From NCBI GenBank assembly GCA_965112155.1, contig OZ218103.1: 64,000 nucleotides of DNA; one strand, 5' to 3'. A program made the translations under genes and the position numbers. The DNA is from Podarcis liolepis (taxonomy: Eukaryota). Below are positions 23,228-42,842 of this stretch, piece by piece (the stretch's first letter is position 1; every line of letters starts with the position of its first letter). The notes below the pieces were generated by a model, which worked only from the letters and a program-made list of their open reading frames with translations, was not told the origin of the DNA and searched no databases.

Positions 23228-26044
23228 ATCTAGGCCCACTCCAAGATACAGGGCTTTCTTTGTGATGGGAGTCTCTCTGGACCACAGCAATGCCTCATCA
23301 CCCCAGTCTGTATTAGTATAGCACCAAGTACCTGGCTGAGCAGAACTACACTCAGCCCAGCTCACAATGCTTTATAAACACACATGCCAACCAAGGATCA
23401 CAATGCATGCATGTGATGAAATGGACTCTGGTCCACAACGGCTTGTGCTGTAATAAATTTGATGTATAAAATGCTACAAGACTTTGCTATTCTGTGTGCA
23501 ACAGGATATAAAAGAGCACAGACCTGGTTACTCAAAATGCTGTAGTTAAAGGAAAAACTAAGCTTCAAAGAGCAGCACATTACTGGAGGCTTATAAACCC
23601 CTGTACTAGCTGTGTGGGTCCAAAGTTATCCCAAAGCCTCTCTTTTCCAGCAACCATCAACAGCTGAGATTTTACTCTGGTCACCTACAGCAGATCCAAG
23701 CTTTGGCAGCCATCCATTTTCCAAAGCAACCACACATTCAAACACTGGTATCTTCCACCCAAATATTTCTCACCTTATATTCCAACAGAGAAAGGCAGAG
23801 TATGGTCAAAACATTCTTTCATTTTAAAATTCATTCTTACATAATTGACTGCAAGGACAACAAAAGCCATTACAGGGAAGGAAGAAAATATTTTAACACT
23901 CACTGCCAAATTCATTGATGACCTATCCCAACAAGTATTCTGGTGCAAAATATATTTACAAACATATTAAATAACCTTAGAGTTCATGCCTTATGTAGCC
24001 ATATAGCCTTACTTGGATATAAAGCTTTTGTTATTTTACACCCTTGCATCACCATAACAATCTGCTAGAATGCATTTGTTATGTCATTTGGCTAGCATCA
24101 ACTGTGGTTTCTATAGTATTCATGAAAAGTTACAATGTTAGAAAGAATTGTGACCAAACCAATCTCAGCCCACTCCTAAGAGTAATGCCTTAGGCCAATA
24201 GTTACGGGTAGAATTAAGCAGAAACAAATTATCATATTAGAAGAAAAATATTCTGCCCAGAGCACCAAAACATTAAGAATTGTGTGAGACCAGGGTCTCT
24301 CTTCCAGCACTTTTTCCAACAGCAGGCAGCCAGATTCTTCCCAGAAGTCTACAAGCCAAGTATGAAAACAAGCCCATTGCAGTACACACACAAGCCTCTA
24401 ATATGCAGAAAACACGGGTTCTGAACATGGATGTTCCTTTTCATTATCATGGCTAATGTATCAGGGCCTAGTGCTGTAAAGGAACCTGTTGAAGGCTACA
24501 ATGATCCTCCAATTTGAAATGCCACAAAGATATAACCTGATCTAAATGTATTTTATTGTCAGGTGTCAACAACCCTTGAACAATGCTGCTCAGCAAAGCC
24601 ATTAAGAACACAGCTGCCACTGAATAGAAAGCAAACTTAGCACATGTGAGGTGTACTTTAAAAAAGAACAACCCACCTAATGACAATTTATTAGAAATTA
24701 ATGCTTCTCAGGTTGCTTGTTTCAAAAGTTTAACTCTACAAGAGAAATATTTTTGAACAGTTGAGTTTAGAGTTTCCAAACATTTTTTTCAGTTCAGCAT
24801 TGTTTTATACTGGTTGTACCTTTCTTTTTTTTGGGGGGGGGGGGTAATACAGCAGTTGTGAACAGTCCGCAATTTACACAGTAGAACACATTATGGTCAG
24901 AAATAGTCACAGAAATAGTGGCAATTTCCACACAAATAAATTTTGGATTATAGGGGATCACATACTTGGGAGAGGAATAAACCCTAGTGCAATTTCAAAA
25001 TCTAGAAAGCCATAAAGCTTTTCAGGGGAAAACATCACACAATATTAAATGTTCAGTTCACAGTTGTGTGAATACAAGGTTTTGTTTAACACAGCAACAT
25101 CTAGAGTAGGTAATCAGATAAAAGAACTTAATGCCCTGTAAATCACCAGCATGGAAGTTTGAGTTCAGGCAAGCTACATGGCAAGCAAGTACTTAATACA
25201 CTGCGACAGAACCACCACCAGATCAGTTTGTGCTTAAGATCTACTGTGTTCTGCAGACAGTGACCAGTGTAATTGACCCATTACCATCAGATCAAATGTT
25301 CTTAAAATATTTGCCTGTAATTCTAATACAGTGGGACTTACTTCTGAGTGAACATGCATAGGAGCAGGCTGTAAATTAGTGTAATTTATTGCACGTTTTA
25401 ATCCAAGGGCTTGTGAAAGAAAGATGCAGGCACATTTCAATACGTTGGTATTTCTGAGACAACTTATTTTTGACTGGAAATAAAAAAGGCACTGCTTCCC
25501 TGAGGTTTAAAGTAGACATACAGTTACTACAGAAGACAGCAAAAGACACACTACATCCCTGATAATGCCCAGAGCGCAAATACTTTTTAAAGTGTATACA
25601 TTTGGAATTTAAAAGAATATCATGTTCGTTTAGTTGTACGTTCGCAAATGTTGAGAAGTACGCATCTTTAGTAAAGCTAAGCAACAATAGTATTAGAACA
25701 GAAAAGAGGTTTAGAAAAAAATAGTATTAAGAGTAGAAAAGAGGTTTAGAAAAGTTAATAAAAAATGGCAAATCCTGGAAGTACACAGGAAAGTAAGGCC
25801 CCTCTTTACTGCCATCTTTCTTTTGCTGCATCTTTTCCCTGTTAGTTAGCAACAAAAAATCCCTTTAGTGGCTTGTAGCTAATTCATATTTGTGACAACC
25901 TGTTTCACTTTGAGAAAGTAATTAAGCTGTTAATTTTAGATATATATTCAGTATTGTAAAGGAGCCCAAGGCATATGTACTAAAACGAAGTAAAATGCCT
26001 AGAAAGTTAATGTTTTGATAGTGAATAAAAATGAATTTGATCCA

Positions 26045-26315
26045 CCGTATTTTTCGCTCTATAAGACGCACCTACAGACCATAAGACGCACCTAGTTTTT
26101 GGAGGAGGAAAACAAGGAAAAAAAAATTCTGAATCCCAGAAACCAGAACAGCAAGAGGGATTGCTACGCAGCGAAAGCAGCGATCCCTCTTGCTGTTCTG
26201 GCTTCTGGGATAGCTGCGCAGCCTGCATTCGCTCCATAAGACGCACACACATTTCCCCTTACTTTTTAGGAGGGAAAAAGTGAGTCTTATAGAGCAAAAA
26301 ATACAAAAAATACGG
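26045..26315. mobile_element. Tc1/mariner (pogo-like) MITE downstream of the BCL10 stop codon
   Basis: Near-identical to 14015-14270. Confidence 0.85.
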
Positions 26316-27140
26316 TAATTGCTTTTGAAGATCAGCGGCAATAGAGTATTACTCAGAAGATCATGTCTTACTCCAAAAGAAGGCACTTAACCCTACAGCC
26401 AGGAATTTGTTCATGTCACACAAAAACTGGACAAGGCAGGCACCCCATGATACATTACAAAACAATCGTATAAAGTACTTGGGTTGCAAACCAAAGAATA
26501 CGTCTCCCTAGGTTCCGAGGCTTCTTTACTTCCTGTCAATAGTAACTAAGCAGAACTTACCAATGTAATGCCAACACCCGTGAGATGTAAGACTCACCAC
26601 CCTCATTCATGACTACTATGTTCAACTCAAAACTTTCCTCGGTGCAAACTTCCCTCCTCATGACACTTCATCAGCACGAATTGGGAGAAAACTAGAAAGT
26701 TCTCAGGAATCAGCAAGCTCAAAAAATCACCAGATTAAATTTCTCTTACAATGCAGAAGAGGATCAAATTATGCTTTCTCGGTGTGAATTTTATGCAGAC
26801 AGTGCATATAGAAAACAGTAGGAAAAACCTCCTTAAAATGTTCAATTGAGCATCATTTTGCCTATATTGTTTTTGAATAGAAAATACCATTTAAAAGCTT
26901 TTACACTGCCAAAAAAAAAAAAAAAAAAAAAGCAACCAATAAAAGCATACAAACAAACATTTGAAATATGAATTAGTGGGGGAAACAGTTCAGATTTTTT
27001 TTATAAAAAAAAACTTATAAGATGCAGTGAGCTGTCAAGCTATTTCTTGATCTATTGTGACTTTACAGTTAGACACTTTTTCCTCACCACCCAAAACTGT
27101 TCAAGGCATCCATCATGATAGTACTCAAGGAAAAATATCG

Positions 27141-27499
27141 CTACGGAAGAAGAGAGCGGGATCTTAAAGGCAGGAAAGGACTGTCACTCGAAGTCGTACA
27201 TGTTTCCTCTTGTTCATTTTGCAATTGCGGCGGAAGAGGTGGGGCTCCAGAATCTCCAGGGCCGGGAAGCGTGGCTGAGAATACAGAGTTTTCTGTACTT
27301 CCAACCTCAGTAATCGGCAAATTCATTGAATGAAGAGAAGCGGCGGATACAAAAGCAGATGTACTAAACTCTTCTGGATGAAGGTAGGTGGTTTCTCTGT
27401 CTTTTTGTTTCTCAAAGAGATTAGATTCATTCGACTGTGATCTGGAGAGATTGTTCGATTGGTCATACCCTGAAGCCATGCAGTTGCTACAGTTCAAGC
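27141..27499 (-). CDS. BCL10: B-cell lymphoma/leukemia 10, coding exon 3 (Ser/Thr-rich tail)
   Basis: (G)LNCSNC...NNLSRSQSNESNLFEK...FSATLPGPGDSGAPPLPP...FLPLRSRSLLP*; AG at 27500-27501. Confidence 0.93.
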
Positions 27500-27619
27500 C
27501 TGTAATAAAGACATAAAATGTATCATTTGCATACAATTTACACAGTGTGGTGGTTTGTTTGTTTCTTTAAGTCTACAACACTACCTCTTGAGTCCATGCA
27601 TGCAGTGTTACGAGTACTG

Positions 27620-27682
27620 GTTCTTATTTTTAAAAATTGGTGTTACGCTGACCACTTTCCAATCCTCAGGTATAGAGGCATG
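27620..27682 (-). mobile_element. Short CR1 ORF2 fragment in BCL10 intron 2
   Basis: IPEDWKVVSVTPIFK resembles the CR1 motif VPEDW..ANVTPIFKKG. Confidence 0.55.
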
Positions 27683-28129
27683 TAGTTGACCACTGTGAGA
27701 ACAGGGTGCTGCAGTAGATGGGCCATTGGCCTGATACAGCAGGTTCTTAAGAGGTAAAATTAAAAGGCAGAAACCAATTACCAATATAATCCAATGCAAC
27801 TACCCAGGCCAGACATAAAACACTCAAATAGAAACATTACATTAAGTTCTTCCACATATCCCCTTTCCAAAGGACACCCCCACCCTAATGCTATCACCTG
27901 ACTTTGACCAAACTAATTCTGGTCAGTAGCTTGTGCCTTGGGTTTATTCATCTTAAGTACAAAAAGAGAACCAAAACCCACAGCTGACAACTGAAGTTTT
28001 ACCTGGCATAAGTCCCCCAAAATCAGCGGAACACACTTTTGAGCAAACACGCACAGAAGCAGGTTGCATGAAAATTAATTTTTACAAAAACCTTTTGGAA
28101 TAGATTCAAATGCATGTTATTCCATTTAC

Positions 28130-28418
28130 CTTTGAGGCTTTCCAATTTTTCATTTTTTGCCTTCAAGACAGCATCGGTTATCTTTTCTAACAGGAAGGTC
28201 TGTGTTTTTTCCCATCTAATAGATTCTATTAGTGCATCCAGTCCTTTGGGATGTTCTGCTAAGTAATCCAGCAGCTTCCCAGCTTTCTTCCTACTTGAAG
28301 ATCGACAAGAGATTTCTTCAGTGTCCTCTCTGCTGAGTATTTTTTTTGAACGTAGATAATCAAAGTGTCTTTCTGCAATAATTTTGTCACACAGATAGCG
28401 GCGCAATCGTTCCAAAAC
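28130..28418 (-). CDS. BCL10: BCL10 coding exon 2 (CARD)
   Basis: VLERLRRYLCDKIIAERHFDYLRSKKILSREDTEEISCRSSSRKKAGKLLDYL...; 289 nt with AG/GT boundaries. Confidence 0.96.
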
Positions 28419-28570
28419 CTAGCAAGAAGAAATGACGAAGTTAGCAACAGATGAATTTTTCATATTGTATGTTGTGCTATGAATATATGTGTGGTAGTTC
28501 TTGGTGCACATTCAAATACTCATCCTAGCTTTCAAATTGTAACAGATTTCATTAATCGCTATCATTGACC

Positions 28571-28572
<2 letters not shown>

Positions 28573-28605
<33 letters not shown>
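28573..28605. repeat. (CA)n microsatellite
   Basis: Directly visible. Confidence 0.95.
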
Positions 28606-28606
<1 letters not shown>

Positions 28607-29409
28607 AGAAAGGAATCAGATGTTTCAAGTTAAGGTAAAGTACCTGTATGTTGACTACAGAAACAAAAAGGAAATTGCCAGCAAGAGGTTACCAAAGGTG
28701 TTTCAGCTATTTCTCGCTAGAGCTCCCCAATCAGCATGAAAGGGGAATTTTTTAGCCACCGAGAAGAGGTCTTCTCACCCTTTGTGCACACTGGAGCCAA
28801 TCCAATTGAAAGGAGGAAAGTCAGCCTCTGAAGATTGGCTCTTAGGGTCACTCGGGTGAAGGTCTATGGAAATAAAACTGAGGTGTATACTCCAAAGCTT
28901 AGCATTTAGGAACACTGAAAACACAAAGTGCTTCAGCTTCAAGAGAATGGTGCTCAAATTCTGTTAAGTACAATGGAACTTGGAGGAAAGTCACTGTGAA
29001 ATAAAATATTGCAGCACTCCAAATCATTTATTTGTATACATGCATAGAAAAAATTGTATCTAGCTGAAAAGCAACAAGTGGAGATCTGCATTGATGATTG
29101 CAATGCATCCCAAATTATTACTATATAATTACGTATATTATGGTGCAATCTAAGAAGACGAGCGGCTACAACATCATGAAGGGACCTGCACTTCCTAAAT
29201 TTGTCATTACACTACTGCTGTGAACATAAACTGTTATTACCCTCTGGCCCAGCATAAAGTAATAACGTACTGAGAGGACTCTTAGTCCGCCTTCCCACTT
29301 TTATGTTTTTAGGCTTCTTCTTGTGAAGTGGGTGTATTCTTTGGTGGCGACGCTTCTTTTTAGGTGGGGGGGTGTGACTCGACTGTTGGTAGACATGGGA
29401 GTGGCTCTC

Positions 29410-29880
29410 TTTGGGACCTTCTCTGAGATGTTGGGCAGATTTGAGGGTAAACCATATACAGCACGGGTCTGCCCTTGTGGCTCGTTGGAAGTTGAAACTG
29501 CTCTACATGTACTATTACGTTGTCGTCTTTATGAGGATATACGTTTGACTTTTATTACACCTGTTTTGCAAAAGTCCAGGAAAGAATCAGAACTCTATAG
29601 TTTAAAACTACTGCTAGAGGATAAGAATCCCAAGACTACATTAAATGTAGCCAAATTCTGTGTGTTTGCAATCAATCACAGGAAGCAAGTGGTATCCCAT
29701 AATGACCAAACCCCCAAATGTTAACTACAGGGAGCACGCTAATAATTAATTTTAATTTTTATATTTAAATCCTTGTTATACTCATATTGTCCTTTGTATT
29801 TCTGATATTTTTATGATCTGTGATATTGTGTTTGTTGATGCTGCTCTGTGACCGTATTAATAAATTCATTCATTCATTCC
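29410..29880 (+). mobile_element. 5'-truncated non-LTR retrotransposon 3' end (RTE-X-like CCHC region) in BCL10 intron 1
   Basis: GRFEGKPYTARVCPCGSLEVETALHVLLRCRLYEDIR, then AATAAA and an (ATTC)n tail; family assignment uncertain. Confidence 0.65.
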
Positions 29881-31209
29881 ACACATAGTATGTGGACTTC
29901 ATAGCAGGAAAAAATAGAACTAGCAAGAACTAATTTTATTGACTCATACATGTGTCAAGCTCAGAAACAAAAGAGGGGAATTCCTATAAACACTCCAAGA
30001 GAAACTCCTACGTAGAAATTTACAAACGGGGGCAGAATGCATGCGATTTAGTGGACCTTCCTTCCTCCTTTTTAATGTTCTTCTAGGACAAGAAAGGGCA
30101 CTCACCCAGAGACTTTTCTGCAATTCAGAGAACCTCCCCTGCCCCCCAACAGTGGCATTCCTGTGAGAACATGCCTCACTGCTAGGAACTGCGATTGACA
30201 TGACTCACAGCTCTCACCTAGTACAGTATATTTTACGTTCTAATACAGCCCTTCCAATGCAGGTTGAGCAGTGGGGTGGGTGCACAGAAGCAACCAACTC
30301 AAAGGGGCTGGGGTCTCTTTGCCCCTCCCCCAATAAAATATTTAAGGGGGCCAGCCCCCCTCAAGTTGATGGACATGGCCATTCAAGCAGTGTGTGAGCA
30401 CCACATCATGCGATCCATTGTGTGGGGGCGAGGCTTACCTGGCTCCCCCCACCTAATATTTTATTCAAGTCGGCACCCCTCGGTGGGTGGTGCACTGGGG
30501 ACCAAGCGTAGAAGGGGTGGCGGTGGTGAAAGGAACACAGAAACCTCCATTATGCTTATTATTATTATCAACTGAATTTATATACCACCCTATACCCAGA
30601 GGGCTCAGGGGCAGGTGGTTAACAGAATAAAATACAAAATCGCAAAAGACACAATCAAAATAAAAACAACCCAATAACTACCCCACCCAAAAAAACCCAC
30701 ATTTTAAAAGGGCATATGATCTTCACACCATTACCCCAGGACAATATCCATCTTACAAGGCAGAGCCAGGATCTTATCCAGGACACCCGCAGGTATGCAT
30801 TTCCTCCTTCTCACCCTCTTGCTACAGAGCATGGGGTTTTTGCTGGGAGTAGTGGGGCGGGGGGCAGACTTTAGTTAGTGGGGGTGGGGCAGGCCCTCCA
30901 TGTTAAGTATTTTTATTTATTTTTATTGATCTGGTGGCGGGGGGGGGGGGGGGGGGACGGCAGCTACTACGCCCATCCTACAGAGGCAGGAAAAGGCATC
31001 TCCCCTTTTCCAGGAGAGAAACAAACAAACAAAAAGGCGGGAATCTTGGCACAGAGGAGCCTTAAACAAACCAGCGCTTTTTGCTTTTAAAGAACACGGC
31101 AGCCTCGGCATTCACTGCCTTATAAACAAGCACCCGGCCACACGCCACCTCCCCAAAAGCTTTACCCCTCCCCACCGCTCTCCCCATTCCCCACGACACG
31201 CTTTTCCAT

Positions 31210-31670
31210 TCACACGATACGAATACCCCCCCCCCGCTTTCCCTCCCTCCCCGCGTGTCTGGAGGGGCAGAGGCTCCTCTCCCCGTTCTCGCGGTCCTTA
31301 CTTCCTTCTTCACCTCCGCCATTTCGTCGTCGGTAAGCGGCCGCCCGGCAGCCGGGAGCCCAGAGTCGGCCATGGCGGAAACGGCTTCGGAGGGCGACGG
31401 TGAGAGGGCGAGAGAGGGAAGGGAAGAAAGGAAGGGAGGGAGGAGGGAAAGAGAAGGGAGCCGCTGCCCCCCTCTTCCTCAGCGGCCCTTCAAGCCCGAC
31501 TCCCCCGGGGAGATGCCGAAGCTTCCGGCGCCGGGGTGAGAAGCCCCGCCCACCTCTCTCGAGGCCACGCCCACTCTCCGCCGGCCGTGGCGAGAGACCG
31601 CACGCAAGGCTTACCGCTGGCGCAGGCGCGCGCGCGCCCTTCCGGGCACTGCTACCTCCCTGCCAAATCG
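31210..31670. promoter_or_regulatory. CpG island / BCL10 promoter
   Basis: CpG-rich; GC box ccccgccc (~31543), ETS-type cttccgg (~31522, ~31639), gcgcgcgcgc run (~31626). Confidence 0.8.
31302..31373 (-). CDS. BCL10: BCL10 coding exon 1
   Basis: MADSGLPAAGRPLTDDEMAEVKKE; Kozak GCCATGG; donor GTAAGG; exons 72+289+359 nt = 239 aa plus stop. Confidence 0.93.
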
Positions 31671-34323: not shown

Positions 34324-35992
34324 ATTTTTTTTAGTAGATGGTGGAGACTGTTATTTCCACAAAAGTAAAACATGTTTTCGATAATGTCAACCTTCCTTCA
34401 AAATACTGACTGTTATACTAAACTATGGGAGATACAATGCTGAAGCAAATTTGCGGCAGTGCTATTTATTGAGTTCCCACTAGAGGTCTCTGCTGTTTAA
34501 CACTTTCACCCCAACAAATCTCTCCCTCCCCCCAATCATTTCCAGCATTACTTTAAATTCTTATAATTTATAGCTACTAGATTGAAATTTCCACCTACAT
34601 TGTAGAGAAACGGGATAGAAGTGTATGGAGAAAGTGGCTAGAGAAGTTTCTCTCTCTCCTAGCACTGGAACTCGTGGACCTCATGGGTTCAAGTCCCACG
34701 TTGGGCAAAAGATTCCTGCATTGCAGGAGATCGGACTAGATGACCCTAGTGTCCTTTCCAACTCTATAATTCTATGAATTCATGGCACAAAAACAAGGCT
34801 TGGGGTAGGAGACAATGCTGAAAGAGATATCCTCTCAAGTCATCGTGTTCATGATTTGATGCAATTGTGTGCATACTTGTGTTGTGTACGTCTGTGTTGA
34901 GTAAGGAACTAGGAACCAGGAACCACGTTCAGTCTTGTAACACACAGCCCCCCTGCCCCCTCCTTTGATACCATATCTGAAAAACTCTCTCTCCGTGTAA
35001 GCTGTCGCTTGATGAAATCAGTTTTCCTTATCAGGAAGAGGAAGATTTCTCTCTCTTCCTTCTGAAGGAGCTCTGAAAGAAGATCGCTCAGAATGATTGC
35101 TGTATCCAGGTCATCTACATGTGACGTTCATAGCTCTTGACTCTTTAGCGCTCTTCCCAGCTCTCTCTGCTGTGCAGGTAGTGGTTTTATTACCACCCCG
35201 TTCCTCTTGCCGTCGCATGATTAATCCTTGACAATCTGAACTTCTGTTGGCTTGCAATCATCAAAGGTTACCTTGAAATAGGTGGCAGACTTTTAAGGAA
35301 AAAACACAGCGTGCATGCAAATGTCTTCCTAAATGCATGTAACATTTATTACCTTTTACTGTTCTGCCAGAGATGTTTTCTTGGAAATGTGGCAACAGCA
35401 TTCATCCCTGCTTTTGCCATGGCTGTTGTCTGTTTCCTTCCACATTTAACTTGGCTTCTGCATCATGAAATGGACCTTCTGTTTTTTATTTACTCCCTAA
35501 TGCAAAACTCATCTTTCCGCAAGGGGACTGTCTTCAGGCTTATGCTTTTCCACGGGCCAAGATGGGAATTTGCAGAAAGTAATTTTGCAATCTTTTACCT
35601 CTCACCTTTTACCTTCTTCTATTCAATGTTATAGCAAACCCAGTAGAAGCCTCCTTGGCATAAGACTGCTTCATATGTTCTTATCAGCGGAAGAATGATA
35701 CCCCACAGGTTGAGCCTGCCTAGATCAATCTCATCGATCAGACCACATTGTGGCAGAGAACAGCTGCCATGCGAAAAAATGCTTGCAGGACACCTCTCTC
35801 CAGGAAAGCCAAACCCATGTATTACTGCAGAAGGTAGGCCAGGATCTCTGGTCAGTTGGGGTACAATTTTGTTCCCTCCTTGAAATACCATTCTGAAATT
35901 GAGCAAAAAACCCTGCATATTGGATGGCAAGGGAACACAGCAATATACCAGTCCCCAACTGAAATCACCAATCTCCAAGTGTTTTTAGTTGT

Positions 35993-36784
35993 TGTCAGGG
36001 GTTTAGGAGCAGAAGCACGGGCAAGGGAGGAAACAGAGAGCGAAGGGGAGGAGGCAGAAGAAAAGATGAGTGACGACGACGACCCGAGATCTCCTAGTCT
36101 TTCCAGTGAATCAGAGGATTCACAGAAAGGAGCACCAGTGGCGAGGGCAAGGGGGGAGTCTAGGGGGGCACCCCAGGAAGACAGAGCCAGAGAGGACTCA
36201 GGGGGGAGCAGCTGGAAATCGGGACCAGCGTCACCGCCAGGAAGCAGGGAAGAGGAAGGGAGCCAGGGGGGAAGCGCTGGCAGCTCACCACAGGAGGGAG
36301 GACATGAGTCAGGAGTGGCCACACCTCCACAGGAGGGAGGACATGAGTCGGGGATGGCCACACCTCCATCGGGGAGCGAAGAAACGGTTGAGAGGAAAGT
36401 GGAAGGTTGGGCGCGCGCGCCAAGTTCAAATGCAGAGGAAGGCGGCGCAGTAAGCAGCCCCGAAAGAGAGCCAGGTCCTAAAGCCCGGCGCAAGGAGGCA
36501 GGAGGGTCTGGGTCAGCGTCAGAAGAATCCCGGAAGGAAGAAGCCCCGGGGGGTAGAGGGACCCAGAGGAGGACAGTCAGGAGGAAAAGGTGGAGCAAGG
36601 CTAGGATATTAAGTTGGTGCACACAGGGCGGAGACTCAGACGGAGCTTCGCCGACCTAGCTACTAGGCGTAGAGTTGCGCGCAGCAGCGTGAGAATGGAA
36701 ACTGTAATTCAATAAAGACTTTTACTTAATGACCGCTGGCTAGCGTGATCCTCTGTGAGCTAGGATCTTCAAGCAGCTCTGACA
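35993..36784 (+). repeat. 5' LTR (792 bp)
   Basis: Direct repeat of 41823-42614; TATTAA 36607-36612, AATAAA 36711-36716. Confidence 0.97.
36607..36648 (+). promoter_or_regulatory. LTR TATA-like box and predicted transcription start (~36638)
   Basis: TATTAA lies 31 nt upstream of agacggagctt, the segment complementary to the PBS. Confidence 0.7.
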
Positions 36785-36786
36785 GT

Positions 36787-36797
36787 AAGCTCCGTCT
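36787..36797 (+). other. Self-priming primer binding site (11 nt)
   Basis: aagctccgtct is the exact reverse complement of agacggagctt (36638-36648); no TGG-starting tRNA PBS. Confidence 0.85.
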
Positions 36798-36874
36798 CCT
36801 CTTGTGGGCATCTACAGCCTCGAGGAGGGGAGAGACACAGGTGCCTACTAGCAAGCTCACGAACGGCAGACGAC

Positions 36875-37939
36875 ATGACGGCTGAGCAGCAGATAGAGGA
36901 ACTCAGAAACGCGGTGGCACAACTGAACGCCGAGGCTCTAGCATCCAGGAAGAGGGAGGAGGAAGCAGCCGCAGCCTGCAGGGATCTCCAGGTCAGGTTA
37001 GACGTGCTGACAAAGCAGACACCCCGGCAGGAGGGCATTGGGTTGGCGAGACGGACAGGCGGGCTGGTCTCTCACTTCGATGGGAACCTGCAACAGTATC
37101 CCAACTTTAGAGCCGACGTACTGTGCGCACTGCAACTGCTGCATAAAGACTTTAGAAATGAACAAGAGAGAGTGGGGTTCATCATGTCCCATCTGCATGG
37201 GGATGCGAGAGCATGGCTACGCAATTTATGGAGAGATAAGGATCCGGCGCTACAGAATGCAGATGCCTTTATTAAAGCAATGGATGGGTGTTTTTTATCA
37301 AGTATTGACGTGGATCTTGCACGGAAGGAGGTGCATGGGCTGAGACAAGGGAGGGCCAGCGTCAGGCAGTACCATGCCCGCTTTTTCGCCTTGGTCAGTG
37401 CCCTGGAATGGGACAGAGATTCGGCTCCTGTAAGAGACCTCTTTTGGGAGGGGCTGCATAACTCGATTAAAGATGAGATCGCCAGGGGGGAGAGACCCCG
37501 AACCACCCAGGAGGTCGTTCAGAGGGCACTGGCAGTGGGGGTGAGGCTGGAAGGACGTCCGTGGAACAGGGACGAAGGGCGTGGAGGGCGCGAACCAGCC
37601 GGGGGCCCCTCTTTCTTTCCCAGGGAAGCAGCGCGGGCGCAATCCACGCCTCCGCCAGGAGGAGGAGCCGAACCTATGGAGGTGGGAGGTGCAAGGGCTC
37701 AGTCAGCAACCAGAGCCCTAGCACCAGCAGCAGTGAAAGCGAAGCCTCCTAGAGGGAACAGGAAGTGTTACGTCTGTGAGGAGCCAGGGCATATGGCGAA
37801 AGAGTGTCCCCAGAGGCCCCACAAGCTCACTGCAGCCTCAGCAATGGTGACTGCAGCAACACAGCAAGGAGGACCACAGCAGGGAAACGAGGCTGTCTGG
37901 CTGGAGGAAGAGGCACTGGGGCCCAGCCAGACGTGTTAG
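36875..37939 (+). CDS. gag: Retrotransposon Gag (coiled coil, capsid, CCHC nucleocapsid)
   Basis: FDGN..Y..F capsid motif, FWEGL...IKDEI, EPMEVG motif, CYVCEEPGHMAKEC zinc knuckle; 354 aa. Confidence 0.93.
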   Translation: MTAEQQIEELRNAVAQLNAEALASRKREEEAAAACRDLQVRLDVLTKQTPRQEGIGLARRTGGLVSHFDGNLQQYPNFRADVLCALQLLHKDFRNEQERVGFIMSHLHGDARAWLRNLWRDKDPALQNADAFIKAMDGCFLSSIDVDLARKEVHGLRQGRASVRQYHARFFALVSALEWDRDSAPVRDLFWEGLHNSIKDEIARGERPRTTQEVVQRALAVGVRLEGRPWNRDEGRGGREPAGGPSFFPREAARAQSTPPPGGGAEPMEVGGARAQSATRALAPAAVKAKPPRGNRKCYVCEEPGHMAKECPQRPHKLTAASAMVTAATQQGGPQQGNEAVWLEEEALGPSQTC

Positions 37940-37954
37940 TGACGCAGTCCCCAG
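37882..37954 (+). promoter_or_regulatory. -1 ribosomal frameshift signal (G GGA AAC plus pseudoknot)
   Basis: Slippery heptamer in the gag frame, 6-nt spacer, 10-bp stem 1 and 6-bp stem 2; pol is in the -1 frame. Confidence 0.85.
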
Positions 37955-40900
37955 CGATTTTACAGCCCGTGAACCCCCTCCCGCCCAAACCAGTAGTGAG
38001 GCTCACAGCGTCTCTCCAACTGCCCAATGGAATCACCATGGACGTGCCAATCACCATTGACTCAGGCAGCAATGCGGACTTTATAGGGCAGGACTTTGTC
38101 GACAGGCACGCTGTGCAGTTGCTGCCGGCCACACTGCCCCTGCAGGTTGTCACGGTGGATGGCAGGGAGCTGCTCGGGGGGCAAGTGGTGAAGCAGACGC
38201 CACCAATGGTGATGCGACTTGGGAATCACAGAGAAATCATCAGCTTCAACGTCACTCGACTATCTGACACGCCCATTGTATTGGGCATGAGTTGGCTGGA
38301 CAAGCACAGCCCAGCGATGGCTTGGTACCAGAGGCAGCTGACCTTCGGCTCTTCCTTTTGTGCTGAACACTGCATCGTGCCCAGGCAGGAAGGAGAGGAA
38401 GAGGAGTCACAGCTGCTGCTAGGCACGCTGCAAGCGATTCCACACAAGTACGCTGAATTTTTGGAAGTTTTCTGCGAGAAGGAGGCAGACAGGCTACCCC
38501 CTCACAGACCATATGACTGCAAAATTGACCTGCTGCCGGGGGCGGCGCTGCCTAAAGGGAAACTGTATTCCATGTCAGAGGACGAACTGCAGGAACTCAA
38601 AGAGTTCATTGACCATAATTTGCAACGCGGCTTCATCCGGGAGTCCAGGGCAGTGGGGGGCAGTCCCGTATTCTTTGTTAAGAAGCGGGACACGCCCCAG
38701 AAAAGACTGGTAGTGGATTACAGGATTTTGAACAGTCTGACTAGGCCATCGGACTTCCCCATGCCCCGTATTGACGACCTCCTCGCAAAGGTACGGAAGG
38801 GCAGAGTGTTCACCAAGTTGGACCTGCGGGGGGCGTACAACCTCATTCGCATGCGGGAAGGAGATGAGTGGAAGACAGCCATGTTCACGCCACTGGGGAC
38901 CTACGAATATAGAGTTATGCCTTTTGGATTGCAAAATGGCTCCCACGTTTTTCAAGCGTTTATGCATCACGTGTTGGCGGGACTTCTCTACAAGACGTGC
39001 GTCTGTTTCTTAGATGACATCCTGATCTTTTCGGAGTCGCAGCAGGAGCATGACGGACACGTCAAGGAAGTGCTGAGCAGGCTAAAGCAACATAGGCTCT
39101 ACGCCAAGCTGGAGAAGTGCCAATTTGACGTGCCGGAGGTGGATTTTCTGGGCTACAAGCTGTCTGACAAGGGGCTCGCCATGGACAGCGCCAAGGTTCG
39201 AGCGGTGTTGGATTGGAAGAGTCCGCGCAACCGGAAGGAGGTCCAACGGTTTGTCGGCTTTGCGAACTTCTATCGCAAGTTTATCAAGGGCTTCGCGATG
39301 CAGACAGCGGCCATCACTGACACGCTTAGCTCCAAGAAGAAGAAGTTCGTTTGGACAGCGCAGGCGGAGCAGTCCTTTCAGGCACTCAAGCGTCTCTTCG
39401 CGTCGGAAGAGCAGCTGCTTCATGTCAACCCCAGCAAGCCGATGAGGGTGGAGACAGACGCCTCGGACAGAGCCGTGGGGGCGGTCCTGTTGCAGAAAGA
39501 CCCGCAGGGGGTGTGGCGACCGGGAGCGTTTTACTCCAGGAAGCTCAGCAAGTCCGAACAGAGCTACACCATCTGGGACAGGGAGTTGCTGGCCATTCAC
39601 GCAGCGTTCAAGGCGTGGAGGCACTTTCTGATCGGCGCCAAGCACACGGTGCAGGTTTGCACGGACCACAAGAATCTAGAGCACTGGCGCACGGCACAGT
39701 TCCTGAACCAGAGGCAGATACGTTGGGCTGAGTTCTTTGCAAACTTCGACTTCCGAATAGAGTATGTCCCGGGGGACACCAACATCATGGCAGACGCTCT
39801 CTCCCGTAAGCCACAGTATCTGGAGGACGCAACGCCAGCGGCCGCCATGCACATCTTCGCACCAGCAGTGTGGGCGTGCGCCGCGGCGACCGTGGACCTA
39901 GAGGCGGTGCGACGTGCGTTGCAGGAGGACTCCTTCGCACAAGCAAAGATGGCAGAGGTGCAAAGGGGCAAGGCAGCGGCCGACGGTTTCCGGTTACGAG
40001 ATGGATTGCTCATCCGAAAAGGGGCCATCTACGTGCCGGGAGACGAACTTCGAGCCAAGGTGCTGCAGCAGCTGCACGACGCGCCCACGGCCGGGCACTT
40101 TGGCAAGGAGAAGACGGTGGAATTAGTAGCCAGGGATTTCTGGTGGCCTGGAATGAGAGGGGAGGTCGCAGACTACGTGGCGAGGTGCGACACCTGCCAG
40201 AGGGCCAAACCAGTGCACAAACCGCCGGCCGGACTGTTGGAACCGCTGCAAACTCCGGTCGAACCTTGGGAAAGGGTGGCTCTGGACTTTGTCACGGATC
40301 TGCCCAGCTCAAGGGGCAAGACGGCAGTGCTGGTGGTGGTGGACCTGTTTTCCAAGATGGCGCATTTCATTCCGTGTGCGAAGGTGGCCACTGCGGAGCA
40401 AACCGCCAAACTGTTCATAGACCACGTGTTCAAGGTTCATGGTCTGCCACGGTCTATTCTGTCCGACCGGGGGCGGCAGTTCATCTCGAATTTCTGGCAG
40501 AAGCTGATGGGCTTCCTGAACGTCAAGATCAACCTGGCGTCGGCGAGACACCCGCAGACCAACGGGCAAGCGGAGCGGGTCAATGCCATCATGCAGCAGT
40601 ACCTGAGATGTTATGCAAATCAACAGCCTGCGACGTGGGTGGATTACCTACCGCTTGCCGAGTTCGCCTACAACAACACGAAGCACGTGTCCACGGGGGT
40701 CACGCCGTTCTTCGCCAACAACGGGAGGCACCCCAGAACCTTCCCGGGACTGGAAAGAATGGGGGAGGGGGAGCCGCAGACAGCAGATGCGTTCGCGTCG
40801 GAGCTGCAGGAGGTCCACGATCAGCTGAGGCGCCACCTGGAGCTGGCCAAGCACGCATACAAGGTACAAGCAGACAAGCACAGAAGGGTTGGAGAAGAGC

Positions 40901-42489
40901 TCCACGTGGGAGACTGGGTTTGGTTAGCAGCCCACGCAGTGCCGGCCAGGTCGTTGGCCAAGAAGAAACTAGGGCATAAGCAACTGGGGCCCTACCAAGT
41001 CGAAGAGCAGGTCAACCCGGTAGCTTTCAGACTGGCACTTCCGGAGGGTTCCAGAATGCATCCGGTATTCCACAGATCGGTGCTCACTCCCTACAAGGCA
41101 CCGCACAGGTTCCAGGAACCCAGAACAGCGCCGAGTCCGGTCAGAGACAGAACAGGGCACGCGGAAGTGGCACAGAAGGAGCGCATCAACGAAGTCACTG
41201 AGATTTTGGACTCCAGATGGGGGGAAGAGGGGGTAGAATACTTTCTCGCCAAGGAGGGCACCCCGGCCAGTGCGAACAGCTGGGTGCCGGGCTACGCCTT
41301 GGACGAACCTCTCCTCAAAGACGAGTTTCATGCCCTCTTTCCCCATAGACCTATGCCAGCAGAATATTTTGACGACTGGCTTTTCACGCCCACACTTTCG
41401 GCCAGCACTTTCCGGGGGTTCGACTCGGACGAGGACCCGACACAAGACGTCCGTTCCCCGGAGGGGTCACCCTCGGGATCTGCATCAGAACCCTCGTATT
41501 GGTGGGACGATAGGCCAGAGGAGCAGTGGCGCAGACGGTGGCTGGAAGGCCCAGGACGAGCAACACCGACAGGAGGAAGTGAGGGAGAGACGGACATGGA
41601 CGTTTTCGGGGACGACCCTGGTTTCGAGCACGGCGGCACAGAGATGGAAGCGGAGGTGACTGTCGTCGACGAGAGCGGGGAGGAAGACCCGGGAGACTTC
41701 AGATGGAGGCCTGCCACGGGAAGCGACCGATACCCGACGTTCGTCCCTTTGCGACAGCAGCCCCCAGCTCCAGCACCGGAAGGAGGGGAGGGGGGAATGG
41801 GGGGCTTCGAGGGGGGGATGGATGTCAGGGGTTTAGGAGCAGAAGCACGGGCAAGGGAGGAAACAGAGAGCGAAGGGGAGGAGGCAGAAGAAAAGATGAG
41901 TGACGACGACGACCCGAGATCTCCTAGTCTTTCCAGTGAATCAGAGGATTCACAGAAAGGAGCACCAGTGGCGAGGGCAAGGGGGGAGTCTAGGGGGGCA
42001 CCCCAGGAAGACAGAGCCAGAGAGGACTCAGGGGGGAGCAGCTGGAAATCGGGACCAGCGTCACCGCCAGGAAGCAGGGAAGAGGAAGGGAGCCAGGGGG
42101 GAAGCGCTGGCAGCTCACCACAGGAGGGAGGACATGAGTCAGGAGTGGCCACACCTCCACAGGAGGGAGGACATGAGTCGGGGATGGCCACACCTCCATC
42201 GGGGAGCGAAGAAACGGTTGAGAGGAAAGTGGAAGGTTGGGCGCGCGCGCCAAGTTCAAATGCAGAGGAAGGCGGCGCAGTAAGCAGCCCCGAAAGAGAG
42301 CCAGGTCCTAAAGCCCGGCGCAAGGAGGCAGGAGGGTCTGGGTCAGCGTCAGAAGAATCCCGGAAGGAAGAAGCCCCGGGGGGTAGAGGGACCCAGAGGA
42401 GGACAGTCAGGAGGAAAAGGTGGAGCAAGGCTAGGATATTAAGTTGGTGCACACAGGGCGGAGACTCAGACGGAGCTTCGCCGACCTAG
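37888..42489 (+). CDS. pol: Pol (protease, RT, RNase H, integrase with GPY/F, chromodomain, long acidic extension), expressed as a ~1,871-aa Gag-Pol by -1 frameshift
   Basis: IDSGS protease site (38059), FLDD RT site (39007), ETDASD RNase H, H..H/CDTC zinc finger, D-D-E (LDFVT, SDRG.QF, GQAERVN), LGPYQV, chromo-like EILDSR..VEYF..NSWVP; no stops or frameshifts. Confidence 0.95.
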   Translation, partial: RGCLAGGRGTGAQPDVLVTQSPAILQPVNPLPPKPVVRLTASLQLPNGITMDVPITIDSGSNADFIGQDFVDRHAVQLLPATLPLQVVTVDGRELLGGQVVKQTPPMVMRLGNHREIISFNVTRLSDTPIVLGMSWLDKHSPAMAWYQRQLTFGSSFCAEHCIVPRQEGEEEESQLLLGTLQAIPHKYAEFLEVFCEKEADRLPPHRPYDCKIDLLPGAALPKGKLYSMSEDELQELKEFIDHNLQRGFIRESRAVGGSPVFFVKKRDTPQKRLVVDYRILNSLTRPSDFPMPRIDDLLAKVRKGRVFTKLDLRGAYNLIRMREGDEWKTAMFTPLGTYEYRVMPFGLQNGSHVFQAFMHHVLAGLLYKTCVCFLDDILIFSESQQEHDGHVKEVLSRLKQHRLYAKLEKCQFDVPEVDFLGYKLSDKGLAMDSAKVRAVLDWKSPRNRKEVQRFVGFANFYRKFIKGFAMQTAAITDTLSSKKKKFVWTAQAEQSFQALKRLFASEEQLLHVNPSKPMRVETDASDRAVGAVLLQKDPQGVWRPGAFYSRKLSKSEQSYTIWDRELLAIHAAFKAWRHFLIGAKHTVQVCTDHKNLEHWRTAQFLNQRQIRWAEFFANFDFRIEYVPGDTNIMADALSRKPQYLEDATPAAAMHIFAPAVWACAAATVDLEAVRRALQEDSFAQAKMAEVQRGKAAADGFRLRDGLLIRKGAIYVPGDELRAKVLQQLHDAPTAGHFGKEKTVELVARDFWWPGMRGEVADYVARCDTCQRAKPVHKPPAGLLEPLQTPVEPWERVALDFVTDLPSSRGKTAVLVVVDLFSKMAHFIPCAKVATAEQTAKLFIDHVFKVHGLPRSILSDRGRQFISNFWQKLMGFLNVKINLASARHPQTNGQAERVNAIMQQYLRCYANQQPATWVDYLPLAEFAYNNTKHVSTGVTPFFANNGRHPRTFPGLERMGEGEPQTADAFASELQEVHDQLRRHLELAKHAYKVQADKHRRVGEELHVGDWVWLAAHAVPARSLAKKKLGHKQLGPYQVEEQVNPVAFRLALPEGSRMHPVFHRSVLTPYKAPHRFQEPRTAPSPVRDRTGHAEVAQKERINEVTEILDSRWGEEGVEYFLAKEGTPASANSWVPGYALDEPLLKDEFHALFPHRPMPAEYFDDWLFTPTLSASTFRGFDSDEDPTQDVRSPEGSPSGSASEPSYWWDDRPEEQWRRRWLEGPGRATPTGGSEGETDMDVFGDDPGFEHGGTEMEAEVTVVDESGEEDPGDFRWRPATGSDRYPTFVPLRQQPPAPAPEGGEGGMGGFEGGMDVRGLGAEARAREETESEGEEAEEKMSDDDDPRSPSLSSESEDSQKGAPVARARGESRGAPQEDRAREDSGGSSWKSGPASPPGSREEEGSQGGSAGSSPQEGGHESGVATPPQEGGHESGMATPPSGSEETVERKVEGWARAPSSNAEEGGAVSSPEREPGPKARRKEAGGSGSASEESRKEEAPGGRGTQRRTVRRKRWSKARILSWCTQGGDSDGASPT
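41809..41822 (+). other. Polypurine tract
   Basis: gagggggggatgga immediately 5' of the 3' LTR. Confidence 0.85.
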
Positions 42490-42614
42490 CTACTAGGCGT
42501 AGAGTTGCGCGCAGCAGCGTGAGAATGGAAACTGTAATTCAATAAAGACTTTTACTTAATGACCGCTGGCTAGCGTGATCCTCTGTGAGCTAGGATCTTC
42601 AAGCAGCTCTGACA
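41823..42614 (+). repeat. 3' LTR (792 bp)
   Basis: No differences from the 5' LTR seen by eye; translations identical in several frames; AATAAA 42541-42546. Confidence 0.97.
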
Positions 42615-42842
42615 GTTGTAGAGGGCAAAAACATTGCACCTGTGCAATATTAGCTGCAGTACTGCAGTCCCAATCCAACACATACATACCCAGCTACTAT
42701 TTAACTTAATATATATATATATATATATGTGGGAGATTCTGATCATGGGCCCCGTGTGTTACACCTGTGCCTTACGTATTCATTAAACTGTGCCAAATTA
42801 GCTAAAATCACGCTTATAGTGATAGTGGTATAGTGGTTAGAA

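Follow-up and report, generated by a model that had tools for sequence, protein, structure and literature searches.

Introduction

TND-interacting motifs, the ligands of TFIIS N-terminal domains, are described as an obligate helix followed by an acidic or phosphorylated linker of 8-16 residues and an optional FxGF, the latter being reported for all known LEDGF/HRP2 partners (PMC9987994). The consensus around FxGF is given as S/E-x-F-x-G-F, with a phospho-Ser at the first position raising the affinity of DPF3a (PMC7337902), and in MLL1 the helix residues F129 and F133 are placed upstream of F148-x-x-F151 (PMC8022399). Here, we analysed a window of Podarcis liolepis DNA (the whole 64,000-nucleotide stretch; assembly GCA_965112155.1, contig OZ218103.1) containing a retrotransposon whose integrase tail, with a predicted helix, a linker of a length in the 8-16-residue range and S/E-x-F-x-G-F, resembles host motifs of MLL1, IWS1, JPO2, POGZ, ASK, DPF3a and fly JIL-1. 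JPO2, ASK and IWS1 carry tandem copies, as do sister families of the element. In contrast to the host motifs, that of the window is found on a mobile-element integrase and has a Ser/Thr-rich rather than acidic linker; the likeness is judged by published layout and consensus, and binding is putative.

The closest described elements are the chromoviruses of the Tf1/Sushi group, which share with the window element a gag, the PR-RT-RH-IN order, a GPY/F SH3 domain, a chromodomain, a self-priming site (PMC6317226) and a 5-bp target-site duplication (TSD). Compared by description with the named reference elements of this group, the window element differs in the loss of the chromodomain cage and in a tail of ~380 residues that carries FxGF and runs through U3. 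Fish relatives have 37-40% integrase identity to the window element, and the fish and fungal-like relatives collected here keep the aromatics and lack FxGF. The HP1-type cage consists of Y24, W45 and Y48; the first and third of these are lost in the group II chromodomains of plants (Tekay, Reina, Galadriel) and in CRM, which are associated with heterochromatic repeats, and as of 2012 no group II chromodomain was known outside plants (PMC3350952). The window clade differs from group II in being vertebrate and in having also lost the central W, and the accessible description of group II contains no FxGF tail (PMC3350952).

A short motif in a disordered tail that binds a host chromatin factor, as proposed here, is described for the integrases of Ty1 (AC40) and MLV (BET). 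The Ty5 integrase tail motif binds Sir4. All three host partners differ from LEDGF/HRP2, and to our knowledge neither Ty1, Ty5 nor MLV has a chromodomain beside the targeting motif. HIV integrase docks through a surface formed by its folded core and N-terminal domains, not via a linear FxGF, and HIV favours gene bodies whereas the window family is satellite-biased. The proposed tether and the step at which it operates, integration-site choice, are nevertheless those of lentiviral integrase with LEDGF/HRP2 (PMC9987994). The integrase tail of this chromovirus is of a new kind. No FxGF on a retrotransposon was found in the literature searched, in which subscription journals are thinly covered, the one paper that turned up (JASPer/JIL-1) dealing with a host kinase; titles and abstract openings from the chromovirus, squamate and LEDGF literature yielded no such motif, the viral-mimicry passage of a TND review names only lentiviral integrases (PMC9987994), and a word search of a 2026 centromere atlas preprint returned no passage on lizards or chromodomains.

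Element architecture

The motif singled out by a first-pass annotation of the window belongs to an LTR retrotransposon that is intact and spans 35993-42614 (Table 1). This is a very young Ty3/Gypsy chromovirus, and its integrase tail is the stretch under study. The element shows the chromovirus hallmarks of TG...CA LTRs, a TSD and gag before PR-RT-RH-IN, with the chromodomain located behind the GPY/F SH3 domain. At least 144 copies with 99-100% identity over a 267-residue query are present in the same genome, and the closest named proteins are Podarcis elements. The 3' LTR contains a TATA-like ATATTAA at 42436 and AATAAA at 42541, and the LTR partner stretch of the primer-binding site lies 30 nt past the TATA-like box. 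The pol frame overlaps gag, and the hairpin downstream of the candidate slippery site GGGAAAC does not exceed shuffled sequences in stability (z = -0.09).

At its 3' end the pol frame enters U3 of the 3' LTR, crossing the polypurine tract and 221 U3 codons (window 41824-42489) without a stop, while the other two frames contain 10 and 4 stops (P ~0.015 by Markov simulation). The pol frame is also open to a basic end in the relatives P0001, P0129, P0133 and P0134.

Table 1 Features of the element and of its integrase tail (window coordinates).
Feature	Position	Strand	Detail
Target-site duplication GTTGT, left copy	35988..35992	.	identical 5-mer at 42615-42619
5' LTR	35993..36784	+	792 bp, TG...CA, 100% match to 3' LTR
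Self-priming primer-binding site	36787..36797	+	exact 11-nt complement of 36638-36648 (presumed R start)
pol frame	37780..42489	+	1569 codons: protease, RT, RNase H, integrase, SH3, chromodomain, long acidic tail
gag	36875..37939	+	Ty3 capsid and CCHC zinc knuckle
Candidate -1 frameshift slippery site GGGAAAC	37882..37888	+	in gag/pol overlap
Integrase GPY/F SH3 domain	40909..41094	+	Pfam SH3_Tf2-1, E 4e-15
Chromodomain without aromatic cage	41188..41337	+	N 41188, K 41251, T 41260
YFDDWLF, predicted short helix	41365..41385	+	candidate first-pocket anchor of TND-interacting motif; last F invariant in 11/11 rows
Linker TPTLSAST	41386..41409	+	8 residues, 5 Ser/Thr, no acid; acidic in sister families
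FRGF followed by DSDED	41410..41436	+	S-x-F-x-G-F, S at -2
DVFG	41599..41610	+	present but unconserved, excluded from motif
Polypurine tract	41809..41818	+	in-frame read-through
3' LTR	41823..42614	+	U3 codes final 221 pol codons
Target-site duplication GTTGT, right copy	42615..42619	.	same as left 5-mer

Chromodomain fold and cage

The first-pass annotation had described a chromodomain without its aromatic cage, followed by several short words. Alignment with HP1 confirms the loss, the cage positions reading N, K and T, and each word was found where it had been placed (NEVTEILDSRW from 41188, EYFDDWLF at 41362-41385, FRGF at 41410-41421 and DVFG at 41599-41610), all of them within the pol frame 37780-42489. 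The Pfam Chromo match of the window domain scores 12.8-15.8 bits, under the cut-off of 25.1. The domain adopts a chromodomain fold in AlphaFold2 models (pLDDT ~88), and the best Foldseek matches of the model are the chromodomains of CBX1, HP1 and CDYL2 (E ~0.007, rmsd 1-2 Å over 43-51 columns).

Lacking Y24, W45 and Y48, the window domain falls outside the methyl-lysine-reading group I. It also falls outside group II, in which the first and usually the third aromatic are lost and W45 is kept, as it has K at W45. The sister families do fit group II: in all 53 readable copies the first cage position is occupied by a residue other than F, Y or W and the third by E or A, while W45 is present in 52, the remaining copy having a stop codon.

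The FxGF motif and its conservation

FRGF pairs, as judged from layout and conservation, with the upstream YFDDWLF block and not with DVFG. The window S-T-F-R-G-F satisfies the S/E-x-F-x-G-F consensus, and a spacing of 8 residues separates it from the helix with its invariant F, although the helix itself is only a low-confidence AlphaFold2 prediction (41359-41382, pLDDT ~56). The linker, with Ser/Thr at 5 of 8 positions and no D/E, is invariant within the window clade. The spacing between the chromodomain and FRGF is fixed, and FRGF is disordered in the model (pLDDT <50 over model residues 69-86); the DSDED that follows it is presumably a CK2-type site. In shuffled tails, FxGF occurs in 3-6%, D-[VILM]-F-G in 0.6-1.4% and F-x(6,7)-[SE]-x-F-x-G-F in 0.04-0.14% of cases, for patterns that were picked after the sequence had been seen. 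As a lone FxGF arises by chance this readily, the case rests on conservation.

Five Podarcis relatives with 66-83% identity keep F, G and F, with R, H or Q at the variable position. The DVFG of the window is replaced by DMFG, DVLG, DVWG or NTLG in the same relatives or is frameshifted, and its counterpart in P0129 is NILG. The conservation predicted for both words thus holds for FxGF, among Podarcis relatives and sister families alike, and fails for DVFG. We reject DVFG as a second docking motif, since it is unconserved and lies 3' of FxGF whereas the MLL1 helix is upstream.

When 1.84 billion representative sequences were searched with a profile, 13 matches were returned, 7 of them below 1e-10. 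P0131, P0132, P0133 and P0134 combine W/F-x3-F with FxGF across an acidic linker of 8-9 residues, twice in tandem in P0134, and these four families are also present in the genome under study. There, 72 loci gave 62 distinct rows, 53 of them sister-family copies with a readable chromodomain frame. FxGF occurs twice in 43 of these 53 copies, once in 9 and not at all in 1. The nine unread rows comprise three outgroups with a cage-type chromodomain (L106, L107 and L125), three degraded copies and three pattern misses, two of which (L077 and L080) do carry both motifs. In an 11-row alignment the window motif falls on the first tandem motif without a gap; invariance extends to the F of the helix, one T of the linker, and the F, G and F of FxGF, and the F and G codons of FxGF differ synonymously across families. 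The second motif of the sister families lies 40-47 residues further out. The window clade retains the first motif only, while P0133, P0172 and P0173 have only an intact second motif.

In an integrase tree of 37 rows, built from sequences collected in this analysis and omitting L106, L108 and L120 as short matches, all motif-bearing families form one clade (support 100/98) whose named members are all from Podarcis, a sampling that independent origins would lie outside. The window clade and its sisters have ~55% integrase identity. FxGF is absent from the cage-intact outgroups P0006-P0008 and L106, which keep the aromatics. At the site of the lizard FxGF, the fish relatives P0006 and P0007 have an Arg-Gly-Arg-Pro stretch, which we take to be AT-hook-like.

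Selection was estimated against five of 20 fetched copies, from one subfamily 82% identical in integrase; the five pairs are non-independent and synonymous sites are near saturation (pS ~0.55), and within these limits dN/dS is 0.02-0.04 for the chromodomain against 0.07-0.09 for the integrase core; the 29-codon helix-linker-FxGF block has 0.08-0.11, against 0.21-0.27 for the other tail and 0.20-0.27 for the U3-coded part of pol. The chromodomain is thus under strong purifying selection and is not a relic despite its missing cage. Nor was it simply abandoned, being more constrained than the integrase core; the earlier suggestion that methyl-lysine reading was swapped for docking is unsupported to that extent. 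Because of the low dN/dS of the block, the motif is judged to be maintained at the protein level, and the U3-coded stretch is a predicted LTR-encoded extension of the integrase.

Prediction of a complex between the LEDGF domain of Podarcis (P0011, residues 401-489) and the window peptide gave a score of 0.02, in a run without alignments and with a tool unproven for peptides, and is given no weight in either direction. None of the solved structures matched by motif profiles is a fusion of LEDGF with a ligand, the PDB matches being chromodomains or chance, and in the ESM Atlas P0132 retrieved chromodomain clusters alone, under 0.9. A further aromatic-acidic block, SYWWDD...W...W (window 41494-41550), is kept in the window clade only and is a candidate for the source of satellite preference. 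Compared with the CENP-C motif pattern, SYWWDD has no arginine anchor and an acidic context, and it was rejected as CENP-C-like. EYFDDWL was compared with the FFAT motif pattern and likewise rejected, as it is not present in the sister families.

Insertion sites

Of 147 window-family copies fetched, 145 had a flank. The flank is one satellite in 34 of these, telomeric repeat in 7, their own family in 10 and other DNA in 94 (nine of the flanks defined the reference for the satellite and match it by construction, but also match one another). In contrast, forty 10-kb control segments (39 random and one hand-placed on C19; 400 kb) contained no satellite or telomeric repeat. Among 131 chromosome-placed copies, 45 are no more than 600 kb away from a contig end, where 1.6% would be expected. 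Both flanks and a TSD are available for 73 copies, among which there are 63 different TSDs; these are therefore mostly separate insertions, and array expansion does not explain the distribution. On each of 12 chromosomes, satellite-flanked copies are found at a single end. A centrophilic retrotransposon would show independent young insertions in centromeric (CENP-A) satellite; the window family shows this satellite enrichment and distinct TSDs, the centromeric identity of the satellite being putative.

The satellite has units of ~255 bp and a higher-order period of 505-540 bp (for example in the flanks of L004-L007, L016, L021, L162, L181-L185 and L214-L218), and is possibly (peri)centromeric. 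C2, C6, C9 and C14 start with telomeric repeat, at the end opposite to the satellite. The seven copies inside TTAGGG arrays are L057, L143, L144, L147, L154, L155 and L174, and the ten own-family cases are nested or in tandem. The 94 dispersed copies have flank GC at background and a CpG o/e of 0.32 vs 0.24 (p 0.02). Post-insertion selection may have contributed to the distribution.

Two further young families were compared by position, using best-scoring copies only. A P0129-like second subfamily of the window clade, without W45, has 25 of 79 copies near ends, whereas a dispersed P0173-like family that keeps both W45 and the acidic motif has 1 of 34; relative to the latter, the end bias is significant for the window family (Fisher p 8e-5) and for the P0129-like subfamily (5e-4). 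The W-like contig C20 holds 5 of the 131 window-family copies, which argues against a general build-up in non-recombining DNA. On this 40-Mb contig (loci L064-L135) older sister families accumulate, which is in keeping with a W chromosome. Many of the copies there have identical broken frame lengths, a sign that segments may have been amplified. C20 was not accepted as a target of the acidic-motif family, its copies being older or having common broken frames. Three of the 40 control segments (L236, L239 and L261) hold element matches of 485-758 bp, and related LTRs or fragments must therefore be very abundant.

The window also contains the host gene BCL10 (~23800-31470, minus strand), exon 2 of which (28129-28416) matches BCL10 structures with E 6e-44. 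BCL10 is transcribed, with splice junctions in reads connecting 31300 with 28416 and 28129 with 27498. Its first exon is ~4.5 kb away from the element, which lies upstream of it and outside the gene body. RNA reads from a related species cover the element on both strands, mostly at 90-95% identity, which marks them as transcripts of relatives and makes them uninformative on the window copy.

Integration near active genes, as the first-pass annotation had proposed, is unsupported for the window family, given that 41 of its 145 flanked copies are placed in arrays of satellite or telomeric repeat. Heterochromatin-type insertion, which it had held to be incompatible with its proposal, is seen in part, in these 41 copies.

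Discussion

We put the probability at roughly 0.55 that the helix-linker-FxGF block is a clade-wide mimic of the LEDGF/HRP2-binding motif that acts as an integration cofactor. The YFDDWLF helix and FRGF would fill both pockets of the LEDGF/HRP2 integrase-binding domain, with phosphorylation of the Ser/Thr linker replacing the Asp/Glu charge of the sister linkers. A host PWWP domain would then hold the integration complex on chromatin, such that the tether would operate during integration. Genes for both LEDGF and HRP2 are present in the genome. HRP2 is reported to prefer silent-chromatin marks and to have CBX1, POGZ, HP1-alpha and MPP8 as partners (PMC4797281, PMC9856275), and a LEDGF/HRP2 tether therefore need not mean active genes. 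Indeed, the tether does not appear to confine window-family insertions to these. Satellite preference most likely stems either from the remodelled chromodomain or from HRP2 docking on silent chromatin; the contrast between families points to the chromodomain, or to the clade-specific tail, as its source. We suggest only tentatively, and at less than even odds, that the LEDGF/HRP2 mimicry represents an independent convergence on the tether of HIV, in which the window subclade became phospho-switched, remodelled its chromodomain and shifted to centromeric satellite while the acidic-motif sisters remained genome-wide.

Several features speak against a LEDGF/HRP2 mimic. The window linker, clade-invariant and without an acidic residue, resembles a segment that is structured or regulated by phosphorylation more closely than a flexible acidic linker. 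The helix is predicted with low confidence, and D rather than a hydrophobic residue stands four places upstream of its last F. The bias to satellite (34/145) and to contig ends (45/131) is not predicted by a LEDGF/H3K36me3 tether alone. Acidic-aromatic motifs, moreover, have many other receptors. A different explanation, doubtful in our view, is that the cage-less chromodomain itself targets satellite heterochromatin, in the way suggested for the group II chromodomains of plants, with FxGF folding back on the chromodomain or binding a partner other than LEDGF/HRP2. This would account for a chromodomain more constrained than the integrase core, for an end enrichment that tracks chromodomain type (frequent in the two families without W, 1/34 in that with W) and for the constant distance of the motif behind the chromodomain, and group II chromodomain fusions are reported to localise to heterochromatin (PMC3350952). 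It sits less well with the disorder of FRGF in AlphaFold2, with the close fit to the published helix-linker-FxGF grammar, and with tandem motifs of which either copy may be retained, as expected of a linear motif.

The original proposal, in which the motif takes the place of methyl-lysine reading and directs integration into or near active genes via LEDGF or elongation-factor domains, draws on the same motif evidence as the LEDGF/HRP2 mimic. The dispersed majority with background GC and raised CpG o/e, the small share of copies on the W-like contig, the dispersal of the acidic-motif P0173 family and the proximity of the window copy to transcribed BCL10 are all in line with it. We consider it improbable: over a quarter of the copies lie in arrays that the 400-kb control lacks, with TSDs that are largely distinct, the chromodomain is still strongly selected, DVFG is unconserved and the window copy lies outside the BCL10 gene body. 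Overall, the first-pass annotation is partly supported, in the loss of the cage and the conservation of FxGF. That the motifs are random words of an acidic tail of low complexity, or a DNA- or RNA-level signal, is highly improbable. A lone FxGF does turn up in shuffled tails, and other conserved tail words coincide with the polypurine tract, the LTR start and the TATA-like box. However, F, G and F are invariant while third codon positions are free and linkers altered across families, the motif is duplicated in tandem, and dN/dS is ~0.1 at pS ~0.55. For FxGF a chance or DNA-signal origin is thus largely refuted; for DVFG it stands.

LEDGF and HRP2 are already known as lentiviral integration tethers. 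If the LEDGF/HRP2 mimicry is true, a retrotransposon integrase copying the host FxGF would represent an independent route to the same tether. The Podarcis genome offers a natural comparison, with related young families that differ in their versions of chromodomain and motif and have very different insertion maps. The finding bears on the recognition targets of retrotransposon chromodomains that lack the cage, and on the ways in which vertebrate elements come to invade satellite arrays.
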